Shown here piece by piece: positions 5,750-54,462 of a DNA stretch of 64,000 nucleotides. Location: the NCBI GenBank assembly GCA_964486045.1, contig CAZALK010000001.1, positions 520,242-584,241 of the forward strand. The letters are read 5' to 3'. Positions within the stretch are counted from its first letter, which is position 1. Every line of letters starts with the position of its first letter. Source of the DNA: an uncultured archaeon (lineage in GTDB: Archaea > Asgardarchaeota > Lokiarchaeia > Sigyniarchaeales > SOKP01). Under the pieces are notes generated by a model, which saw only the letters and a list, made by a program, of their open reading frames with translations, did not search any database and was not told where the DNA came from. The position numbers and the translations under genes were made by a program.

Positions 5750-5850
5750 AGCCTCTGGGGGGAATTGAACCCCCGGCCTACAGATTACGAATCTTTAACA
5801 TTTACGTCAAAATGATATTAAATGTTGCTCTACCGCTAAGCCACAGAGGC
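5750..5850 (-). tRNA. tRNA-Thr(CGT) with 29-nt intron at 28/29 (5795-5823)
   Basis: Acceptor GCCTCTG/CAGAGGC-T; restored anticodon arm ACAGA-TTCGTAA-TCTGT; relaxed HBh' motif AGCA/TGTT with TTTA/TAAA. Confidence 0.93.
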
Positions 5851-7307: not shown

Positions 7308-7411
7308 GGGCTATTGGCGCAGGCAGGTAGCGCAACAGGCTTTTAACCTGAAATTTATGAGATTAACTCTCCTGAAAAGGAAGGTCGGGGGTTCGATTCC
7401 CCTATAGCCCG
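7308..7411 (+). tRNA. tRNA-Lys(TTT) with 30-nt intron near 44/45 (about 7353-7382)
   Basis: Acceptor GGGCTAT/ATAGCCC-G, loop CT-TTT-AA, T-arm GGGGG/CCCCT; the junction can slide within a repeated GAA. Confidence 0.92.
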
Positions 7412-45057: not shown

Positions 45058-45891
45058 ATGCCAATAGATTTAAACGCAATAGGTCAAACAAAGGAAATTG
45101 TCTTTGAATATAAATGGAGAGACGTTGTGCTCTATGCATTAGGGATTAGTGCTCAAACTAATGAATTACCATTTCTTTATGAAAGAACACAAGGAGGAGT
45201 AAAAGTGTTTCCAAGCTATGCCGTTATTGCTGGAGATGGTGAGGCTCCCTTTGAAAAGCTTGGAAGCGTCGAATGGGCTAAATTAATACATGGAGAGCAA
45301 TTTATAAAGCTTTATCGTCCATTTCCGTCACAAGGAAAAATAACAAGGAAGGGAACAATAACAAATATTTATGGTAAGGGAAGAAATGCAATAATTCAAT
45401 CAATAAGGCAAGGGTTTAATGAGAAAGGAGAACATATATTTGATGCAAAATGGGTACATATTTTATTAGATGGTGGTGGATTTGGTGGAGAATCTGGGCC
45501 AAAAGCCCAATCTTTGAAACCTCCAGAGGGAGTTAAGCCTGATTTTAGTATATCTTATAAAACTACCGAGAATCAAGCTGCTATATACAGACTTAACTGA
45601 GATCTCAATCCTTTACATTTAGATCCCAGTTATGCTAAATTGAGTGGTAGATTTAATGAGCCTATTCTTCATGGGTTATGTACATATGGTTTTGCTGCTC
45701 GAGCAATATTATATGGAGCTTGTGAAGGCGATGTGAATCGGTTTAAAGAATTTAGTGCAAGATTTTAACTACCGGTTTATCCTGGTGACATAATTACTAC
45801 AGAAGGCTGGAAAGATAACGGACGATTTATTATTCAAGCTCATACAGGGAAAGATGTAGTAATAAGCAATGGTTATGCAATTGTAGAATAA
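45058..45891 (+). pseudogene. Double-hotdog (R)-enoyl-CoA hydratase 2 (MFE-2/MaoC type) with two in-frame stops
   Basis: YRLN*DLNPLHLDP (TGA 45598-45600 at the Gly position), PILHGLCTYG, ARF*LPVYPG (TAA 45766-45768); frame ends at 45891. Confidence 0.93.
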
Positions 45892-45990
45892 TTTAAGCTC
45901 CTAGACGGGGAATCTAAACGAAAATTGCCGATTATAAAAGCTTATTAGATTAAGGATCAATTTAGGATAATTTACCTTAATTCAAATTCA

Positions 45991-46830
45991 TTGATCGAAA
46001 CCTATTTAGATTTCAAATACTTAGATTGTTCTATGGTGAATGAAAGCTTAAGATCAGTTCGGGTGTCACCAGAGAATGAGTCAATGTTCTATAATCACAT
46101 TAAAAATAACTTCGCAGACTATTTTTTTTTCCATGTTGACTATGCTCAATATCCAGAAAGAACTGAAATATATATAGCGCTAGATAATGAAGAAAAAATT
46201 CAAGGAATGGTCCTAATCTGGAAAAATATCAAACGAAGAATTCAATTGAGAGGATCTCTTACAAGTCTTGAATTTTTATTAAATCGACTGAATCTTAATC
46301 CGATATCTGTTACTGGATTTGATAACCATAAAAAGGTGATTGCAAAATTCTTTCCAGATTATAAAATAGAAATTGCACTATATCGTATGGGTTTGAAAAA
46401 AGGAGATCAAAAAAATTTTGAGAATTACAAATTCAAAAACCTCTCTGAATCTCATAGAGAAGAGATTACTTCGTTGATGAGAATTGCAGATCCTATTTAC
46501 TGGGGTTCACGCAATCCAGAAGATATCCTGATTGATGAAAATAATGTTTGGTATGGTTTAATTGAAAAAAAAGAGTTGATAAGTATTGTGGCGATATGGA
46601 AATATCAAAGTGTAGGGTATTTCACTATTGTTGGGACTCATCCAGATTACTGGAACCAAGGATTTGCCAGTTCACTAATCTCTTCAGCATTAAAAGAAAT
46701 ATTTCGAGACAAAAAACAATCTTTTATTATGGTAAGGGTAGCCAATGCTCCTGCTATCCATACTTATGAAAAATTAGGTTTTTCGATTTGTAATACTCAT
46801 TATTCTTATGAGAGATTGAAGTTTTCATAA
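45991..46830 (+). CDS. GNAT family N-acetyltransferase
   Basis: VGTHPDYWNQGFAS and NAPAIHTYEKLGF. Confidence 0.88.
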   Translation: MIETYLDFKYLDCSMVNESLRSVRVSPENESMFYNHIKNNFADYFFFHVDYAQYPERTEIYIALDNEEKIQGMVLIWKNIKRRIQLRGSLTSLEFLLNRLNLNPISVTGFDNHKKVIAKFFPDYKIEIALYRMGLKKGDQKNFENYKFKNLSESHREEITSLMRIADPIYWGSRNPEDILIDENNVWYGLIEKKELISIVAIWKYQSVGYFTIVGTHPDYWNQGFASSLISSALKEIFRDKKQSFIMVRVANAPAIHTYEKLGFSICNTHYSYERLKFS

Positions 46831-46945
46831 TAAAATCTAATCTCGAGAACTTACACCCTACTACACACCTAATCATAATAACTAGCCATCCAACAAAATG
46901 AATTGTAATAAGAAATTTTAAATATAAAAACGATTTTTCATTGAA

Positions 46946-46974
46946 TTTTCATTGAAGGCAGACTCTGAATTTAC
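46946..46974 (+). repeat. 29-nt direct repeat, copy 1 (left of the GC-rich hydrolase)
   Basis: ttttcattgaaggcagactctgaatttac matches 47968-47996 at 25/29. Confidence 0.7.
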
Positions 46975-47035
46975 TCTTCAAGGATTATTAAAAACCAAGC
47001 GAACACTATAATAATGATTTTATATAAACTAGAAT

Positions 47036-47869
47036 ATGAATCGTATCCAAATTAAAGCTCGTGGATTCACATTTGATGCCTGGTCAGCTGGACCTAAAGA
47101 GGGACCGTTGATACTATTACTGCATGGTTTGCCCCGAACGAGCTGGGAGTGGCACCATCAGTTGGCGAAATTAGGCGAGGCGGGGTTCAGAGCTGTTGCG
47201 CCTGATCTGAGGGGTTACTGTCCAGGTGCGAGACCTGAAGGTGTGAAGGCATATGTTGTAGATGAATTTGTTCAAGATATCCTGGCAATCGCAAACCATC
47301 TTGGATGGACAGATCGTCCCTTTCATCTTATGGCTACCAGTATTGGATCTGTGATCGCATGGTGGCTTGCTGGAAACTATCCACAACGGGTAGCAACGCT
47401 GGCTTGCATTAACATTCCACATCATATGGCACTCCTTGAGGTGATGGAGACAAAGGCGGCGGATAAACTACGAAAAGGGTTTAGCTATTTTTCTAATTTC
47501 AGAAAGGAAGGCATGGAATTGAAAAATTTTGAGGACTCAATTAAACGCATAGGATTGCCAGCCGAAGAAACCAATCCCTATCGTAAGGCGCTCAGCAGCG
47601 AAGAAGCACTTCGAGCTGTTTTTCACTGGTATCGGGCACTACCCTCATGGTCGTCTCAACCATTAAAGTCAGTTGTCATGCCCACTCTATATATCTGGCC
47701 CCGAAATGCTGGCAATGTGACAAAAGAGGCGGCTGAGGCGAATGCGCATTATGTTAAGGGACCATATCGATTCGAGATCCTCGAAATTGCGCTCAATTGG
47801 GCACTTCAAACGGAGCCTGAGAAAATAACCCACCTATTGCTTGAGCATCTGGCGGAACACGCCCAATAA
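47036..47869 (+). CDS. Epoxide-hydrolase-like alpha/beta hydrolase, GC-rich
   Basis: LLHGLP, APDLRGY and HWYRA motifs; catalytic positions atypical. Confidence 0.85.
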   Translation: MNRIQIKARGFTFDAWSAGPKEGPLILLLHGLPRTSWEWHHQLAKLGEAGFRAVAPDLRGYCPGARPEGVKAYVVDEFVQDILAIANHLGWTDRPFHLMATSIGSVIAWWLAGNYPQRVATLACINIPHHMALLEVMETKAADKLRKGFSYFSNFRKEGMELKNFEDSIKRIGLPAEETNPYRKALSSEEALRAVFHWYRALPSWSSQPLKSVVMPTLYIWPRNAGNVTKEAAEANAHYVKGPYRFEILEIALNWALQTEPEKITHLLLEHLAEHAQ

Positions 47870-47967
47870 AACGATGTGTTGCCCCTCCCTAAAAACTTCG
47901 ACAAATGATATAAGATCTTAGATTATTACATAATTATTTTTTGGTTAAAATTCCTTTTTCAAAGGAT

Positions 47968-48068
47968 TTTTCATCGAAATCAGACGCTGAATTTACCTTT
48001 CCATCAAAATAAAAAAAATAATCAAAATAAGAAAAAGAAAAAATTATATCCGCTCAGGAACATACTCC
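47968..48068 (+). repeat. Degenerate copy of the 23S distal trailer and terminator region
   Basis: gaaatcaga..ctga.tttac motif, A-tract, then atccgctcaggaacatactcc (48048-48068) identical to 50248-50268. Confidence 0.85.
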
Positions 48069-48337
48069 TTTAAGGCAATCGAAAATGTACCTACTCTCAT
48101 CCAAATGCCCATCGAAAGTTAATAAGTGAATAAGTGAATTAAAAAATTGAGAAGGGAACACTACTCCTCTCAGCAAAAAAAGAGTAGCGCCCATGAAACC
48201 TCATTTTGTTCAAATACATCCCTTGCACACATCTTCAAGGAAATATCCATAACTCTCTTATATACACTATACTGGACAAAACTACTATATAAAATTAGCT
48301 CAACTATAAAAAAATTAAAAAAAAAAACCGCCAATAT

Positions 48338-48478
48338 ATGAGACCTGCTCTCAAAAAACTAGTTTCAAATGGTTTTATTATTATACGTCCAGGGAGTAAG
48401 GAAACAAGTTATTATTTAAGCTCAGATGGGTTAAAAGCATGTAATTTATTGAAAAAAGAGCTTGAAAATAGTATTTAA
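48338..48478 (+). pseudogene. Possible remnant of a winged-helix protein
   Basis: MRPALKKLVSNGFIIIRPGSKETSYYLSSDGLKAC resembles recognition helix plus wing; upstream frame is closed. Confidence 0.4.
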
Positions 48479-48564
48479 ACCTGAAATTTACAGTTTATAA
48501 TGAAATAACACCATACAAAATATTTTGTATCTTTGTTTGGCTAAAAAAAAGTTTGGAGGATTGA

Positions 48565-48849
48565 TTGAGAATGTTTATTTTAAGAGCTGCTAATCAAATA
48601 AGGAGGAAAAAAGCTCTTGAGAATAAATGGTTTTTGTATGAGATTATCGATAAGAATCCTGGTATGACTATCTACAACTTAAGCAAGAAAATAAATTGGA
48701 CGCCTGGCAAATTAAAATATTATATTCAAAAATTAGTAAAAGATGGAATGATAAAGAACTCAACAAAGAACATCAATGGAAGAACTCAGAAAAGATATTA
48801 TGGAAAAACCATAAAAGAGTTTATTAATTGGGAAGAATGGGATAAATAA
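48565..48849 (+). CDS. Winged helix-turn-helix protein
   Basis: NPGMTIYNLSKKINWTPGKLKYYIQKLVKDGMI..KRYY. Confidence 0.82.
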   Translation: MRMFILRAANQIRRKKALENKWFLYEIIDKNPGMTIYNLSKKINWTPGKLKYYIQKLVKDGMIKNSTKNINGRTQKRYYGKTIKEFINWEEWDK

Positions 48850-48964
48850 AATTTCACTATTTTTCTTTTTTCTATTTTTTGTGAATCTCACTACAAAATA
48901 ATGTTATTGATTTGAAAAAGTGAAAAATTTTATTAATAAATAAATTTTCTAACTGTTCTATGCC

Positions 48965-49783
48965 TTAAGTCTTATTAATACGCAAAAAGAATATCTTTTC
49001 TTCTCCATCTCCTAATAATTCTCTTCTAATCGCTATTTTTTCACCGATAGAATCTAAAATAGTCCGGATATATGATGGACCTCCAATTATCCTGTAAAGA
49101 AACAACGACTTGGAATTATTGTCAATAGAATTTAGATGTATTTCAACTCCTACTACATCTGTCCCAAAAAAATTCTCTTTATTATATTTTACATGAACAA
49201 GCTCTACATCAGTTAAAATTATATCTCGTTGCTTTTCTAAAAATTCCTTAGGATGTCTTGAAGTATCAATTCTGAGGTTATTAAGAGATTTCAAAATCCA
49301 ACGTCTATTAGTCAAAACAAAGGTATCATGATATTTCCACAGTTCTCGATGCGAGATAATCGCTTCTCTTTTGATTTTCACATAATTTTTCAACCCTCTC
49401 CCTATCAAATATGATGTAAAAATTACAAAGAAAATATCAGACACCACAAATATAAACGATACATCAGATGATAAGAAAAACGTAAAAAATAGAGAAACGA
49501 TCACAGCTGGAAGCCCAAAAACAAATCCACCTTGCAACCTACTATAAGCATCATTTAAGAAATTACTTTTCTGAGTGAACCTAAATAAAATTTCTTCCTT
49601 AGGACTTAAGAATCCCTCGAGACCTTGTATTTCAGCATCTAACACCTTATTATAGTTATCAACAGATTTTTTTCTAATGTGCCTTAGGATATGTGTGGTT
49701 GGGAAAGATTTTTCACATTTTGGACAGTTCTTCATCCAATCATCCAATTTTGCTCCACAGATGAAACAATATTTTACCGTCAT
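48965..49783 (-). CDS. Zinc-ribbon plus 2-TM membrane protein
   Basis: N-terminal CFICG..CPKC, two hydrophobic helices, soluble C-terminal domain (FVLTNRR). Confidence 0.78.
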   Translation of the reverse strand: MTVKYCFICGAKLDDWMKNCPKCEKSFPTTHILRHIRKKSVDNYNKVLDAEIQGLEGFLSPKEEILFRFTQKSNFLNDAYSRLQGGFVFGLPAVIVSLFFTFFLSSDVSFIFVVSDIFFVIFTSYLIGRGLKNYVKIKREAIISHRELWKYHDTFVLTNRRWILKSLNNLRIDTSRHPKEFLEKQRDIILTDVELVHVKYNKENFFGTDVVGVEIHLNSIDNNSKSLFLYRIIGGPSYIRTILDSIGEKIAIRRELLGDGEEKIFFLRINKT

Positions 49784-49818
49784 TTCTTTCTAATTGAATT
49801 AATATTCTCAGGAATATA

Positions 49819-49846
49819 CTCAGGAACATACTCCCACACCTTACTC
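49819..49846 (+). repeat. Second copy of the 23S trailer core
   Basis: ctcaggaacatactcccacaccttactc identical to 50253-50280; preceded by a tandem partial copy tattctcaggaa. Confidence 0.9.
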
Positions 49847-50249
49847 GCTTCCCATCAAACCAACCTATTCTTCGGTATCCATAGATTTTCTTTCAAAATT
49901 GGTACTGATCAAATCGGCCTCGGGGTCATTTTCTCGATTATGGGGGTGTTTACGTTTATAATATTGGCTATTAATCCAATTCTTTTCGAAATTGTTTATG
50001 TAGTTTCACTCGTGGAAGGAGTAGGCCTTTTAATTGCTGGAATTATTTTGATTATTAATGGTGCTTTAATTGAAAAAAGAAGTAATTGATTAGCATATTT
50101 TTACAATTAGCAGCTTAATTTCCTAACTTAATTTGGAGTAGTTTATAGTTTTTAACTAGTTTTTCCATTTCAAATTCCCTTGAAATCAGAATCTGATTTT
50201 ACTTTTTTATTAAAATAAGAAAAAATAGAAAAAGAAAATAAAACAAAAT

Positions 50250-50378
50250 CCGCTCAGGAACATACTCCCACACCTTACTCACTTCACTTCTTATCAAACA
50301 ATCAGCCATGATTACCTTACCATACCGCAATACACTTCAATAAACCCTTACGCGCTAAGCCTGAACCTTATGCTCCTC
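50250..50378 (-). other. 3' arm of the pre-23S processing stem with BHB half-site
   Basis: Complementary to 53833-53972; AAGGTTCAG-GCTT-AGC-GC. Confidence 0.85.
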
Positions 50379-50977
50379 TTTCGACAGCCATACACTCGTG
50401 CTGTTGAGAGTAGCGGGCTGAATAGGTCGCCCGTAAGCTCCCTACGTACACCCCTACCTCACCAACCCCGTCTTTTACGGGGGCACTCGTCTCGATTCCG
50501 CAGTTCACGTCACCGCGCCCTGCTCTCGTTATCAACGCTTATAACCCATTACAATTATGGCTTTATACTACATGCTTTTGGCAAAGCTCAATCATCAAGG
50601 TCTCCCCCAATAATTTAAACTTCACCTCTACACTCCGAACTGACTTCCGGCTTTCACAGGACTGCCTTGTCAATTCAACCAACTGCAATACGCTAAAAAG
50701 CGCCTAACATTATTGATCGAGATTGGCTGACTATTTTCGGGTCCGGCTTCGTGCTTAGATGCTTTCAGCACTTATCCGTTAGCGCGTGGCTGCCCAGCAA
50801 TACCTTGTCAGATAACTGGTACACTAGTGGCGCCGGCAAAATGTTCCTCTCGTACTGATTTTCCCTTACCCTCAGTCAACCTACAAGCCCAGCAGATAGA
50901 ATCCGACCTGACTCACGTCGGTCTGAACCCAGCTCACGTTCCCTTTTAATGGGCGTACAGCCCCACCCTTGGAAGTT

Positions 50978-51020
50978 GTGCACCCGGCATTAAAACCGTT
51001 TTAACGGCCCCAAAACCGGT
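50978..51020 (-). other. Putative 43-nt BHB intron in 23S helix 91 loop
   Basis: GCAC-AT|A-CCGG...CCGG-GTGC-AC|A. Confidence 0.75.
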
Positions 51021-51629
51021 ATGTGCGCTCCCAGGATAGGAAGAGCCGACATCGAGGAAGCAAGCCACGAGGTCGATAGGAACTCTTGCTCGTGACAACT
51101 CTGTTACCCCCGGGGTAATTTTTCTATCACCTTAACCACCCACACGAGGTTAGTTAAGGATCGCTAGACCAGGCGTTAGCCTCAGGATTCCTTGGTGATC
51201 AGAATCCAGTCAGACCAGCTTTTGCTCTTAAACTCTTCAGCGGATTCCTGACCCGCTTGAGCTGATCATTGGTTACTCTAGATATTTTTTCTAGAGTGAG
51301 CCGCCCCAGCCAAACTGCCCACCTGCGGATGTCCAACACGTTTTGTGCCGTTAGCGATTTCAGAAAGGAAGGCCGGTATTCCATTTGTGCTCCACCGTGA
51401 CCGAAATCACGGCATCTCCGCTACCGACTATACTCTGCATTCAGTCCAAAACCGCAACAACAGGCTGCAGTAAAACTCCACGGGGTCTACTCGTCCCGCT
51501 GGGCTTCTCCGGTCCGTTCGCCGGAGTGTAATTTCAATCGTCAGAAGGCTGGGACAATGGGGAGAACGTTGGACCATTCATGCACGTCTGAACTTACCAG
51601 ACAAGGCATTTGGCTACCTTAAGAGAGTT

Positions 51630-51686
51630 CTAACTCCGTCTGTCGGAATGACGCGATTTACGCTATTGGAATGATGATAAGACGGT
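51630..51686 (-). other. 57-nt BHB intron in 23S helix 69 (after E. coli position 1917)
   Basis: GGGAGT-AACT-AT|A-CCGTCT...AGACGG-AGTT-AG|A-ACTCTC; excision restores the conserved H69. Confidence 0.92.
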
Positions 51687-53832
51687 ATAGTTACTCCCGG
51701 CGTTTAGCAGGACTTACTCTGGTTGTAACCAGGATTTATCAAACTGCCACTGGCCAGGTTTCAGCTTCTGTAAAAAAGCTTTCGCTCTATCAGAAACCTA
51801 TGTTTTTGTTAAACAGTCGTCCCCCCCTAGTTATTGCAACTTGTGAGCCCCTTCACACTACCGAAGTTGCGTGAAGAAGTTCGCAAGCAAGCCTTCTCCC
51901 AAAGTTACGGCTCTAAATTGTCGATTTCCCTAGCCTCCTTTACACGAATACGCCTTAGGCTACTCACCTAGGGGCACCTGTGTCGGTTCTGGGTACGATC
52001 ACGGCATTTCTTGTTGATGTATTTTTATTAAGTCCTGGACTCAGCGGAGCCTTCCACAATTGGATGGTTATTCATGCTTTGAGCTGGGTCTAAGATTTAC
52101 TCTATTCACCAGCTTTATACATTTAAATAGGGAGATATTCGACGACCCTATTCTACTTATCCGGAACTGTCTACATACAACCATGCGTCACCGCTATTCG
52201 TAGTGCCGTGGTACAGGAATATAAACCTGTTTCCCTTTCGCGCGTACCAGTTAAGGGTGCGCTTAGGATCGACTAACTCTTCGCTGACGACGCGTTGCAA
52301 AGAAACCCTTGCCCTTTCGGCGGATGGGATTCTAACCCATCTATGCTTTTACTATTACCAGGATTTTCACTCCGAAGCGGTCCACAGGAACTCACGCACC
52401 TGCTTCAGCCCACTCCGGACGCTCCCCTACCAGATCACGGGGTTCTTCCGCCCGTGCTCTTGGGTCTCGGTGGCAGATTTAAGCCCCGTCCATTTTCGGG
52501 GCTATATTTCTCGGCAAATGAGTTGTTACACACTCGTTAGGGAATGGCTACTTCTATACCTATCCTTTTGCTGTTTTAGAAATATAACGCCCTTTCGTTT
52601 AACACTTAACCTGCACTTAGGGACCTTAACCCAAGTCTAGGTTGTTCCCTTCTCGGCGATGGACTTTACGCCCACCAACCCGTTTCCCAGAGTCTACAGT
52701 GCCAGCAAATTCGGAGTTTAAGAGCGAGGAGAGGAATTCCTTCCCCTTACCACACAATTAGTGCTCTACGTCACTGGCGACTTCGTCTGAGACTTGGCTG
52801 ACACCAACTTCGGGGAGAACCAGCTATCACCGATCTAGATTAGCCTTTTGCTCCTATTCCCAGTTCATCCAAGAGAATTGTACATCATCACTGGTGCAGA
52901 CCTCCATCGCCCTTTCGAACGACTTCATCTTGACCAGGAATAGATCGACCGGCTTCGGGTTTTACAGCAGAAACTTTTGGCCCTTTTAGACCATTCTTCT
53001 GGCCTAACTCCTTAGTAGGATTCGCTAAACGTTATCAGAGTGGCAAAACCACGCGTCAACGAGTAAACCTTCCTAATGTGATAGTTAGGTTGCAAGAATA
53101 TTGGTTTCCCTATGCCTTCGTGGGTGATCCACTTAAGCTTGCTACTACTGTAAACTCCCTGGCCAATGATTCCAGACTGATGATGCAACCCTAGTCCTCT
53201 GTGCTTTGACATTCCGTCACCGGAACTCATTCGCGCAGAATCTATCCTTTCAGGCTGCATCCTTACTAAGCTATTTGGTTTCAAGCACTTTTCACGACCC
53301 TTCCGGGTTACTTTTCATCTTTCGCTCACGCTACTACTTCACTATCGGTCTTGGGTTATATTTAGATTTACCAGCGTGTATCTGGTACATTCATACGAGA
53401 AAACCATCCCGCATTACTCGGGAACTCTCGCAGCAACCTTCTAGATTTTTATTACGCGGCTATCACGCTCTATGGCTCAGCTTTCCAGGAGTATTCATAT
53501 TCTCTAGAGAGGTCGTACAAGGTCCACACACCACATTTCCACTAGGTTTCCCTAGGGATTCGGTTTGATCTATTCCGCTTTCGCTCGCCGTTACTAACGG
53601 AATCACTATTGTTTTCTTTTCCTCCTGATACTAAAATGTTTTACTTCTCAGGGTTCCCCTTCCCACGAGGGAATCTTGCGGATTATTTGGCCGCAAGTGG
53701 ATGTCCTATTCGAGGATCTCGGGGTCAACGTCTTCATGCGACTAGCCCGAGCTTATCGCAGCTTGTCACGCTCTTCATCGGTTCCCAAGCCAAGATATCC
53801 ACCAAATAGCGGAGGCGTATTGGCGTCTAGTT

Positions 53833-53972
53833 GAGGAAAGATTCAGATTGCTTGCCTAAGGGTTTGGCATATTCGGTATTAGTAAGTTTTTATAACTTTT
53901 TTTTATAAATTATTATCAATTCTGACGATTGATAAGAAGCCTTAAATAATATGGGGAGTATGTTCCTATGAG
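53833..53972 (-). other. 5' arm of the pre-23S processing stem with BHB half-site
   Basis: GC-AAGC-AAT-CTGAATCTT pairs with the trailer; also GGAACATACTCCC/GGGAGTATGTTCC. Confidence 0.85.
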
Positions 53973-54462
53973 CATGATTTATCATGCTTGGCTTCGGTTT
54001 ACTTAGACCAACCAATGTGAAGGTCAGTTTAAGCACCCACATCCTGTGGCACCATCATTTTGACCGAGGTCTTTTCTGGTGTACTTCTGTGAGGCCTAAG
54101 CCGGCTATTGGCCATATTTCATCGACTATCGATGAGATGTTTTTCTAACCAATAACTTGTCGATGACGACAATTCAAATTTTTAAAAGCATTTAATGCCA
54201 TCGACGAAGTATAAGAGTAAATACTTGGTTAAAAATTTTATGGTCTAAACACATAAACATTAAAAGGCATTATGAAGATTCTGGGGTGTAATAATTAAAA
54301 GGTTTACTACACATTTATAAATCGAAGCAAAAAGGGAAATAAATTTGAATCAGAAAATTAAGGAAATTTGAAGTTTTGAATTCGAGAACGATTAATTATT
54401 AGCAGTAAGAAAAGACGAGTTTGAAGATATCGTGGTAATATTTATAAGAATTAGGGTGTAAA

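Follow-up and report, generated by a model that had tools for sequence, protein, structure and literature searches.

The 23S rRNA gene and its tail copies

The 64,000-nt stretch of DNA analysed here (the window) belongs to an uncultured archaeon with a genome of 5.18 Mb and a GC content of ~31%. The host is a member of a Lokiarchaeia (Promethearchaeota) genus, and its relatives are metagenome-assembled genomes from the Promethearchaeota (Lokiarchaeia), e.g. Loki_b32, ABR05, and ABR06. Our subject is the region directly behind the 23S rRNA gene, where partial copies of the gene's 3' end and trailer (tail copies), as well as a dispersed 49-bp site, alternate with other genes. Judged from sequence, the 23S end appears to be a lineage-wide hotspot of gene accretion and, since accessory genes are stacked between tail leftovers and 49-bp sites, a long-running platform for gene acquisition. 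The 16S rRNA gene lies about 52 kb from the 23S gene. Read outward from the rRNA leader, the features next to the gene are:

53838..53973, minus strand: 5' leader, with a bulge-helix-bulge-like half (53838-53865) and the distal stem arm (53954-53973) that pairs with the trailer
50384..53826, minus strand: 23S rRNA gene, single copy, no operon with 16S
50204..50383, minus strand: native 3' trailer, with the stem arm (50250-50269) and then a T-tract, the probable terminator (50204-50248)
50161..50209, plus strand: 49-bp site in a degenerate copy, immediately after the terminator
49883..50089, plus strand: membrane gene remnant, its N-terminal ~40 codons missing at the junction with copy B; full 114-aa homologue in relative G013
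49807..49885, minus strand: tail copy B, trailer from about +67 to +131, T-tract gone, 12-bp tandem scar at 49807-49818
48965..49783, minus strand: Zn-ribbon membrane protein, 272 aa; wherever the DNA is readable, its homologues are likewise part of 23S-tail arrays
48565..48849, plus strand: winged-helix regulator (HTH_24), intact
48338..48478, plus strand: winged-helix gene remnant, N-terminal half (46/92 aa) gone at the junction; intact 92-aa homologue in G077 and G018
48305..48332, minus strand: probable minimal tail remnant (the fourth, and tiny), an A-tract/terminator tract plus CCGC, four bases of the arm
48115..48325, no strand assigned: non-coding module, common to contig C90 of G004
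48004..48068, minus strand: tail copy A, trailer from +116 onward, with stem-arm core and T-tract

Leader and trailer are predicted to form a duplex of -108.7 kcal/mol, and the T-tract at 50204-50248 probably terminates transcription. A 16-nt core, the distal arm of the pre-23S processing stem with its partner in the leader at 53954-53973, has just three exact occurrences in the 5.18-Mb genome, at 48053, 49819, and 50253; the chance of one additional exact copy within 2.3 kb is about 2e-7. The match with the native copy is exact over 21 nt at 48048-48068 and over 28 nt at 49819-49846. A first-pass annotation, made from the sequence alone, had pointed out the three cores, both flank identities, and the stem arm; we recovered all of them, the last through leader pairing. 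The winged helix-turn-helix (wHTH) genes, the Zn-ribbon membrane gene, and the 5'-truncated membrane gene that it listed are likewise present, and recombinase family searches bear out its statement that the window holds no integrase. Its accessory region exists, but not with an extent of ~20 kb: the strain-specific part is nearer 10 kb (about 40.2-50.2 kb), since backbone genes in an order common to relatives restart at about 40 kb. An Rfam search of 46.8-50.4 kb gave no match.

Two observations concern the rRNA itself. Its Rfam 23S match covers 3,443 nt compared with a model of 2,987 positions, and a variable segment is located about 150-330 nt from the 3' end, on its 5' side. None of the tail copies seen reaches past this segment. 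Pre-23S leaders (window 53838-53973; relatives L108-L127) are 85% conserved across species, versus 69% for the trailers they pair with.

Diverged repeats beside a high-coverage rRNA gene raise the question of an assembly artefact, a worry already voiced in the first-pass annotation. Arrays in many relatives do break at contig ends, and the support here consists of assemblies. However, the copies are diverged, not identical, and three further assemblies show the same layout: ENA ERZ23499938 (100% over 12,783 nt; it may derive from the same reads), ENA ERZ23500248 from a second sample, which is nearly clonal with this genome (3 differences in 10,379 nt), and the Logan contig SRR8799001 (100% over 5,330 nt). 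The layout is therefore not the product of a single assembly. A gap-free stretch of the single-contig relative G050 also holds a diverged trailer copy, and we regard an artefact as extremely improbable.

The interval between copies A and B (48069-49818) is a mosaic of three pieces that differ in origin; it holds the Zn-ribbon gene with the wHTH pair, the probable minimal tail remnant, and then a non-coding piece. The first wHTH gene is halved at 48305-48332, and a segment of G004 that matches the adjoining piece of the window abuts a degenerate tail copy; we consider 48305-48332 a probable tail remnant. JGI contigs from another lineage have this Zn-ribbon gene behind a tail copy with T-tract and spacer intact, which argues that copy B most likely lost its T-tract/terminator through deletion. 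Together, this deletion and the mosaic interval suggest that the attL/attR appearance of the window is truncation and deletion combined.

This bears on the interpretation offered initially, in which the 16-nt stem core is the att of a site-specific element and 48053/49819 are attL and attR of one 1.75-kb unit. The left-plus-core and core-plus-right geometry is exact, G001, G008, and G011 show split pairs with overlaps of 19-26 nt around a module, and the left junction of one module lies near +20 in three species. Yet there is no fixed crossover among 119 copies, the overlaps fall at differing places (-98/-73, +2/+22), the terminator missing from copy B is present in another lineage, and the interval is mosaic. 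Neither trailer nor 23S tail nor 49-bp site had a match in scans of viral contigs, and the ribbon-helix-helix (RHH) protein described below had none either. Only one provirus integrase is located near an ectopic tail, and within 90 kb no matching tail marks the other end. No integrase tied to tail-bounded modules was found in the genomes and loci searched, and neither TnpA nor TnpB of an IS200/IS605 element is present at the locus. With no fixed crossover, no linked integrase, and no coherent unit, the stem core was rejected as the att of an integrative element; this reading is largely refuted and, in our judgement, very unlikely. The integrase site appears to be the adjacent 49-bp repeat rather than the processing stem.

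The provirus-like block just mentioned (L104 210-9153, contig C28 of G024) is of archaeal host and carries terminase-like, portal-like, and capsid-like genes, assigned by inspection, and a 391-aa tyrosine integrase. It lies 1.5 kb from an old ectopic 23S-tail copy, and no tail-type att pair was found for it.

Tail arrays are common behind the 23S genes of relatives

Serial accretion at the 23S trailer, as originally proposed, is well documented among relatives: at least two matches to the 23S tail were found in 31 of 53 genomes of the same genus. A profile search of 41 stretches gave 139 tail matches, 138 of them in 23S direction, and between them lie modules that hold one to four genes and have a median length of 1.15 kb. 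The largest array, in G011, has 12 extra tail copies in 20 kb. Counted from the mature 3' end, the 119 non-native copies have starts spread continuously between -150 and +92, which speaks against a fixed crossover in the tail, while 99 copies extend to the T-tract. Modules recur among species together with their junctions, at differing positions in the arrays. Cargo genes are about evenly oriented (84 sense versus 76 antisense) and thus give no sign of expression from the rRNA promoter. G006, an N-gapped scaffold that first seemed complete with dispersed copies, was excluded for position.

In three genomes (G030, G025, and G012), what follows the terminator is backbone or other genes, and the stretch read contains no additional tail copy. 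Near-empty sites, whose existence the first-pass annotation had proposed to check, can thus be found, albeit all in other species and not in conspecific strains. The 23S 5' end gave one real match per genome and no arrays, and no comparable arrays were found at the 16S 3' end. Fewer tail copies occur in a second genus of the same family, and one or two diverged trailer copies are present in four genomes of two other families; G055, a 6-Mb single-contig genome, has no trailer copies behind its three 23S genes. Fragments of the 23S tail also lie far from 23S on long contigs (L298, i.e. G024 C28 326-346 kb; L320; L321; L322), some within 49-bp-site arrays, indicating that modules move between loci.

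Compared with the native tail of their own genome, copies differ in 7% of the columns that are conserved among species and in 43% of the variable ones (e.g. 3/145 versus 21/56), a pattern expected of once-functional trailers and not of neutral decay. With a given leader, foreign trailers often form a duplex almost as stable as that of the native trailer (-67 to -81 kcal/mol, compared with -29 to -51 kcal/mol for shuffles); because they pair far better than shuffles, tail exchange should be tolerable. This leader-pairing test did not separate donor from resident origin of the trailers, and a ranking of copies by their best native (own native best in 19/63) was not used, as a best-of-18 comparison is biased.

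Protein genes carry a similar scar

Orphan 3' ends of protein genes in this genome lie downstream of their gene in 38 cases and upstream in 7 (p 3e-6), and orphan 5' ends tend towards the mirror image (11 upstream versus 3; p 0.06); paralogue controls are symmetric. The differences between orphan 3' ends and their genes concentrate at codon position 3 (234, versus 105/70 elsewhere). In single-copy genes they are nearly all synonymous, with synonymous/nonsynonymous-type splits of 8/0 in rps7 and of 23/1 and 23/2 in two others. The at least 38 orphan 3' ends are located 0.3-12 kb downstream of genes such as rps7, EF-2, and a small GTPase (e.g. C13 50077-51944 and C13 92102-95766).

Direct repeats that bound inserts are of variable length and often exceed 30 bp. 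Searches of the arrays in the genomes covered for tyrosine, serine, Y1, IS110, TnpB, and reverse-transcriptase (RT) families found none tied to them, and tail-bounded inserts carry no mobility gene of these families (DDE transposases were not searched). In array-bearing G011, G002, and G025, the only tyrosine recombinase is XerA-like.

These data also bear on in-situ duplication through template switching, in which replication forks stalled at the heavily transcribed 23S end would duplicate it, foreign DNA would be caught between initially identical copies, and later gene conversion would keep the rRNA part alike. Such a process accounts for a hotspot confined to the 3' end and for variable duplication lengths; it also agrees with the superior pairing of native trailers to their own leader (better than the copies in 20 of 23 cases) and with the 28 exact bases shared by copy B and the native trailer. 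Neutral decay, however, would be even across columns rather than 7% versus 43%, the orphan ends of single-copy genes differ almost only synonymously, and modules with their junctions recur at differing array positions in different species. We therefore consider template switching unlikely.

A fixed 3' end at the T-tract and variable 5' truncation also look retroposed, and the genome has two RT genes (C41 152-1651 and C14 142412-143710; both unlinked to arrays). But reverse-transcribed copies of pre-rRNA 3' ends would hardly be co-oriented and clustered behind the gene, their source would be a rare precursor and not the mature rRNA, and four array-rich relatives have no RT match. This origin appears highly improbable.

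A 49-bp site marks integrative elements and gene cassettes

The gaaatcaga motif next to copy A, at first taken for a locus-specific left flank, is instead part of a 49-bp repeat dispersed through this genome in about 20-25 copies, of which three lie in the window. Beyond the degenerate copy behind the terminator, the features concerned are:

47955..48003, plus strand: 49-bp site, near consensus
47036..47869, plus strand: alpha/beta hydrolase cassette, 47.6% GC (genome about 31%); flanked by a pair of 49-bp sites here, as in G077 and G018
46933..46981, plus strand: 49-bp site; behind its copy of the GNAT gene, G011 has this site and the integrase element's left end
45991..46830, plus strand: GNAT acetyltransferase cassette, in varied contexts in relatives and bracketed by two sites in G001 and G062
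45058..45896, plus strand: MaoC-type hydratase gene, broken; the site array of contig C11 has an intact paralogue with 90% identity

The site was found in 97 of 134 genomes of this family versus 0 of 26 other Lokiarchaeia. Its copies are co-oriented in all 33 multi-copy metagenome contigs, mostly with one gene, in either orientation, between sites. Among pairs of loci that share the left flank, the right flank is also kept in 8/96, compared with 52/54 at a control point 200 nt away; a second flank set gave 4/29 versus 48/49. This drop at the site itself identifies it, on sequence grounds, as a recombination joint where flanks appear to be swapped. Of 303 copies, 29 are located 29-85 nt from the stem arm, i.e. 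just behind the 23S terminator.

Elsewhere in this genome, four co-oriented sites in contig C11 (104263-109803; L144) partition accessory genes, including the intact MaoC paralogue, with a tRNA-Ala inside. Rare inverted or half copies of the site bracket segments of 4-7 kb (C2 320094-325050, C16 124372-131829, and C22 33030-36820). Distant site clusters are often, though not always, co-oriented, and GC skew was uninformative on a polarity relative to the replication strand.

The longest right-hand extensions of the site lead to a gene for a 172-aa NikA-like RHH protein, a 302-aa tyrosine recombinase, and a convergent helicase-like gene. Complete units of 7-9 kb have the layout site, NikA-like RHH gene, recombinase, convergent helicase-like gene, cargo, site. 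Intact elements between two direct sites are found at L350, L351, L367, and L368. The recombinase matches PF00589 (E 1e-23), retains the full R-K-H-R-H-Y set (R151, K175, H242, R245, H268, and Y278), and is confined to the same family (16/134 genomes versus 0/26 other Lokiarchaeia). A search of this genome found relics of the element and no integrase. Eleven tail-bearing loci contain the site together with relics of element ends, and no tRNA gene was present in the 32 element loci checked.

Intact and tandem RHH-integrase-helicase elements of 7-9 kb can be seen at L367 (1329-19506), L349, L350, and L351. In some elements, the 49-bp site is overlapped by a gene whose N-terminus is peptidase-S24-like.

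The site flanks intact elements on both sides, its flanks are exchanged, and it delimits cassette arrays. From this arrangement we infer that the 302-aa integrase acts on the 49-bp site and that it has been active at the copies linked to 23S; the exchange of flanks lends indirect support to a presumed excision of the elements as circles.

Could the integrase elements drive the whole array, with imprecise excision at the 49-bp site removing variable pieces of the tail that then re-enter with cassettes? Of the 152 tail-bearing loci, 70 also hold the site, always in one relative orientation, and tail pieces are found within site arrays far from 23S (G024 C28). Most tail copies, however, have no site behind them (19 adjacent sites versus 139 tail matches), tail copies exist in families that have neither site nor integrase, and the protein-gene scars had no 49-bp site nearby. 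We judge this explanation quite unlikely.

Two observations lie outside these subjects. Contigs C40 and C45 of the genome have a GC content of 58-59%, versus about 31% elsewhere, and are probably bin contamination; two tRNA genes of the window (5750-5850 and 7308-7411) have probable short introns.

Two proposed overlapping accretion processes

We favour, with some reservation, a reading in which two accretion processes overlap behind the 23S gene: homology-anchored insertion, which would build the tail arrays, and integrative elements that use the 49-bp site. In the first, DNA from a relative would arrive with the conserved 23S end, its trailer, and neighbouring genes, recombine into the resident 23S end, and provide a working stem and terminator. 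Its far end would join at a variable point upstream of the old terminator, displacing the old tail outward as a 5'-truncated copy. Later deletions would wear down these copies, and recombination between copies would shuffle modules among lineages. Stem and terminator would thus be rebuilt, as had been suggested from the start, in that each event leaves a working pair beside the gene. The geometry, co-orientation, variable starts, shared modules, selection-type divergence, and protein-gene scar are observed features of this tail layer; as for donor route and enzymes, the host's homologous recombination may have acted together with an illegitimate joint, or circles may have integrated by single crossover. 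The tail layer is probably integrase-independent, and tail arrays also occur in families without the 49-bp site. In the second process, the site beside the terminator would serve as attachment site of the 7-9-kb elements; these and integrase-less, one-gene cassettes would stack there, with the integrase present only transiently.

Several observations weigh against this reading. No age gradient was detected along the arrays (rho 0.28, p 0.11). Among 39 testable cargo-to-tail junctions in relatives, one cuts a gene, so that arbitrary breakage is not established as a rule; in the window, both junctions of that kind cut genes. Detection by hidden Markov models favours conserved motifs, which partly biases the contrast between conserved and variable columns, and some of the orphan gene ends are remnants of tandem paralogues. 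The reading does not account for the sparing of the 23S 5' side and of the 16S end. Finally, no intact element adjoins a tail in the 152 tail-bearing loci and 20 further element loci, and the integrase is missing from this genome.

A more far-reaching interpretation, which we offer tentatively and think possible rather than probable, is that the family runs an undescribed integron-like system, coupled to homologous exchange at the rRNA end. A small mobile element would provide the tyrosine integrase in trans, capturing and shuffling single genes at the 49-bp site; one such site would ride behind the 23S terminator, and exchange of rRNA tails between lineages would spread and multiply the cassette arrays. 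If true, the Asgard rRNA end would be a coupled hub of homologous and site-specific gene trading.

Homology-anchored insertion combined with site-specific elements would offer a possible route by which uncultured Asgard archaea gain and swap accessory genes, and the scar, present at dozens of protein genes, suggests a general way of gaining genes while sparing the anchor gene. Tail arrays could explain genome breaks at the 23S end, and they come with a warning: rRNA 3' fragments in these genomes are not additional operons. The 49-bp-site system could account for cassette-like arrays that integron searches would miss. Moreover, the 49-bp site and the 302-aa integrase make a defined pair amenable to testing in E. 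coli and could become an integration tool for Asgard archaea.

Comparison with known systems

A literature search, whose coverage was incomplete and which is no proof of novelty, returned no account of stacked rRNA-tail arrays, of an rRNA gene end as a stacked, integrase-independent insertion site, or of the 49-bp-site element, and no paper linking the 49-bp site to the 302-aa integrase. The integrative element family is apparently undescribed.

On the side of the 49-bp site, integrons and clusters of attC sites lacking integrases (CALINs), archaeal ones included (PMC9668308), share co-oriented arrays of sites with about one gene between them, often with no integrase in cis. The element integrase reaches 52.5 bits against TIGR02249, where the cut-off is 265, and its identity as an integron integrase was rejected. 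In contrast to integrons, the sites described here are near-identical and lack attC core ends (consensus by inspection; no attC model was run), and the genes, which have upstream regions of their own, can point either way. Tycheposon islands and tandem integrative elements at tRNA genes (10.1101/2020.12.28.424599) resemble the 49-bp-site element in being small and transient, in their tyrosine recombinase, helicase, and regulator genes, and in leaving relic islands with repeated att sites. Here, however, the target is not a tRNA but a non-coding 49-bp repeat at many loci, the one-gene cassette arrays are regular, and rRNA-tail copies without fixed crossover are found.

For the tail arrays, the rRNA-anchored variable islands of Pelagibacter (PMC4033161) provide a parallel insofar as rRNA genes were proposed as recombination anchors for accessory clusters; there, the whole cluster is replaced, and stacked partial rRNA copies were not described. 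The microcin H47 island (PMC3191183), which was shown to be independent of homologous recombination, likewise has long imperfect direct repeats, variable crossover points, and no recombinase in cis, but is a single island at a non-rRNA site. According to the summary in PMC2884548, homology-facilitated illegitimate recombination combines one homologous anchor with one illegitimate joint and requires no dedicated recombinase. In naturally competent bacteria it replaces resident DNA, whereas the resident tail of these archaea persists in a displaced position. Insertion with long, variable target duplication (PMC2853133) also places cargo between long target copies of variable length with no other mobile element involved. 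That system comprises single events with near-identical repeats at bacterial restriction-modification genes, while in the archaea studied here the end of an rRNA gene is targeted, with up to 12 stacked events across the genus and with copies that are diverged alleles.

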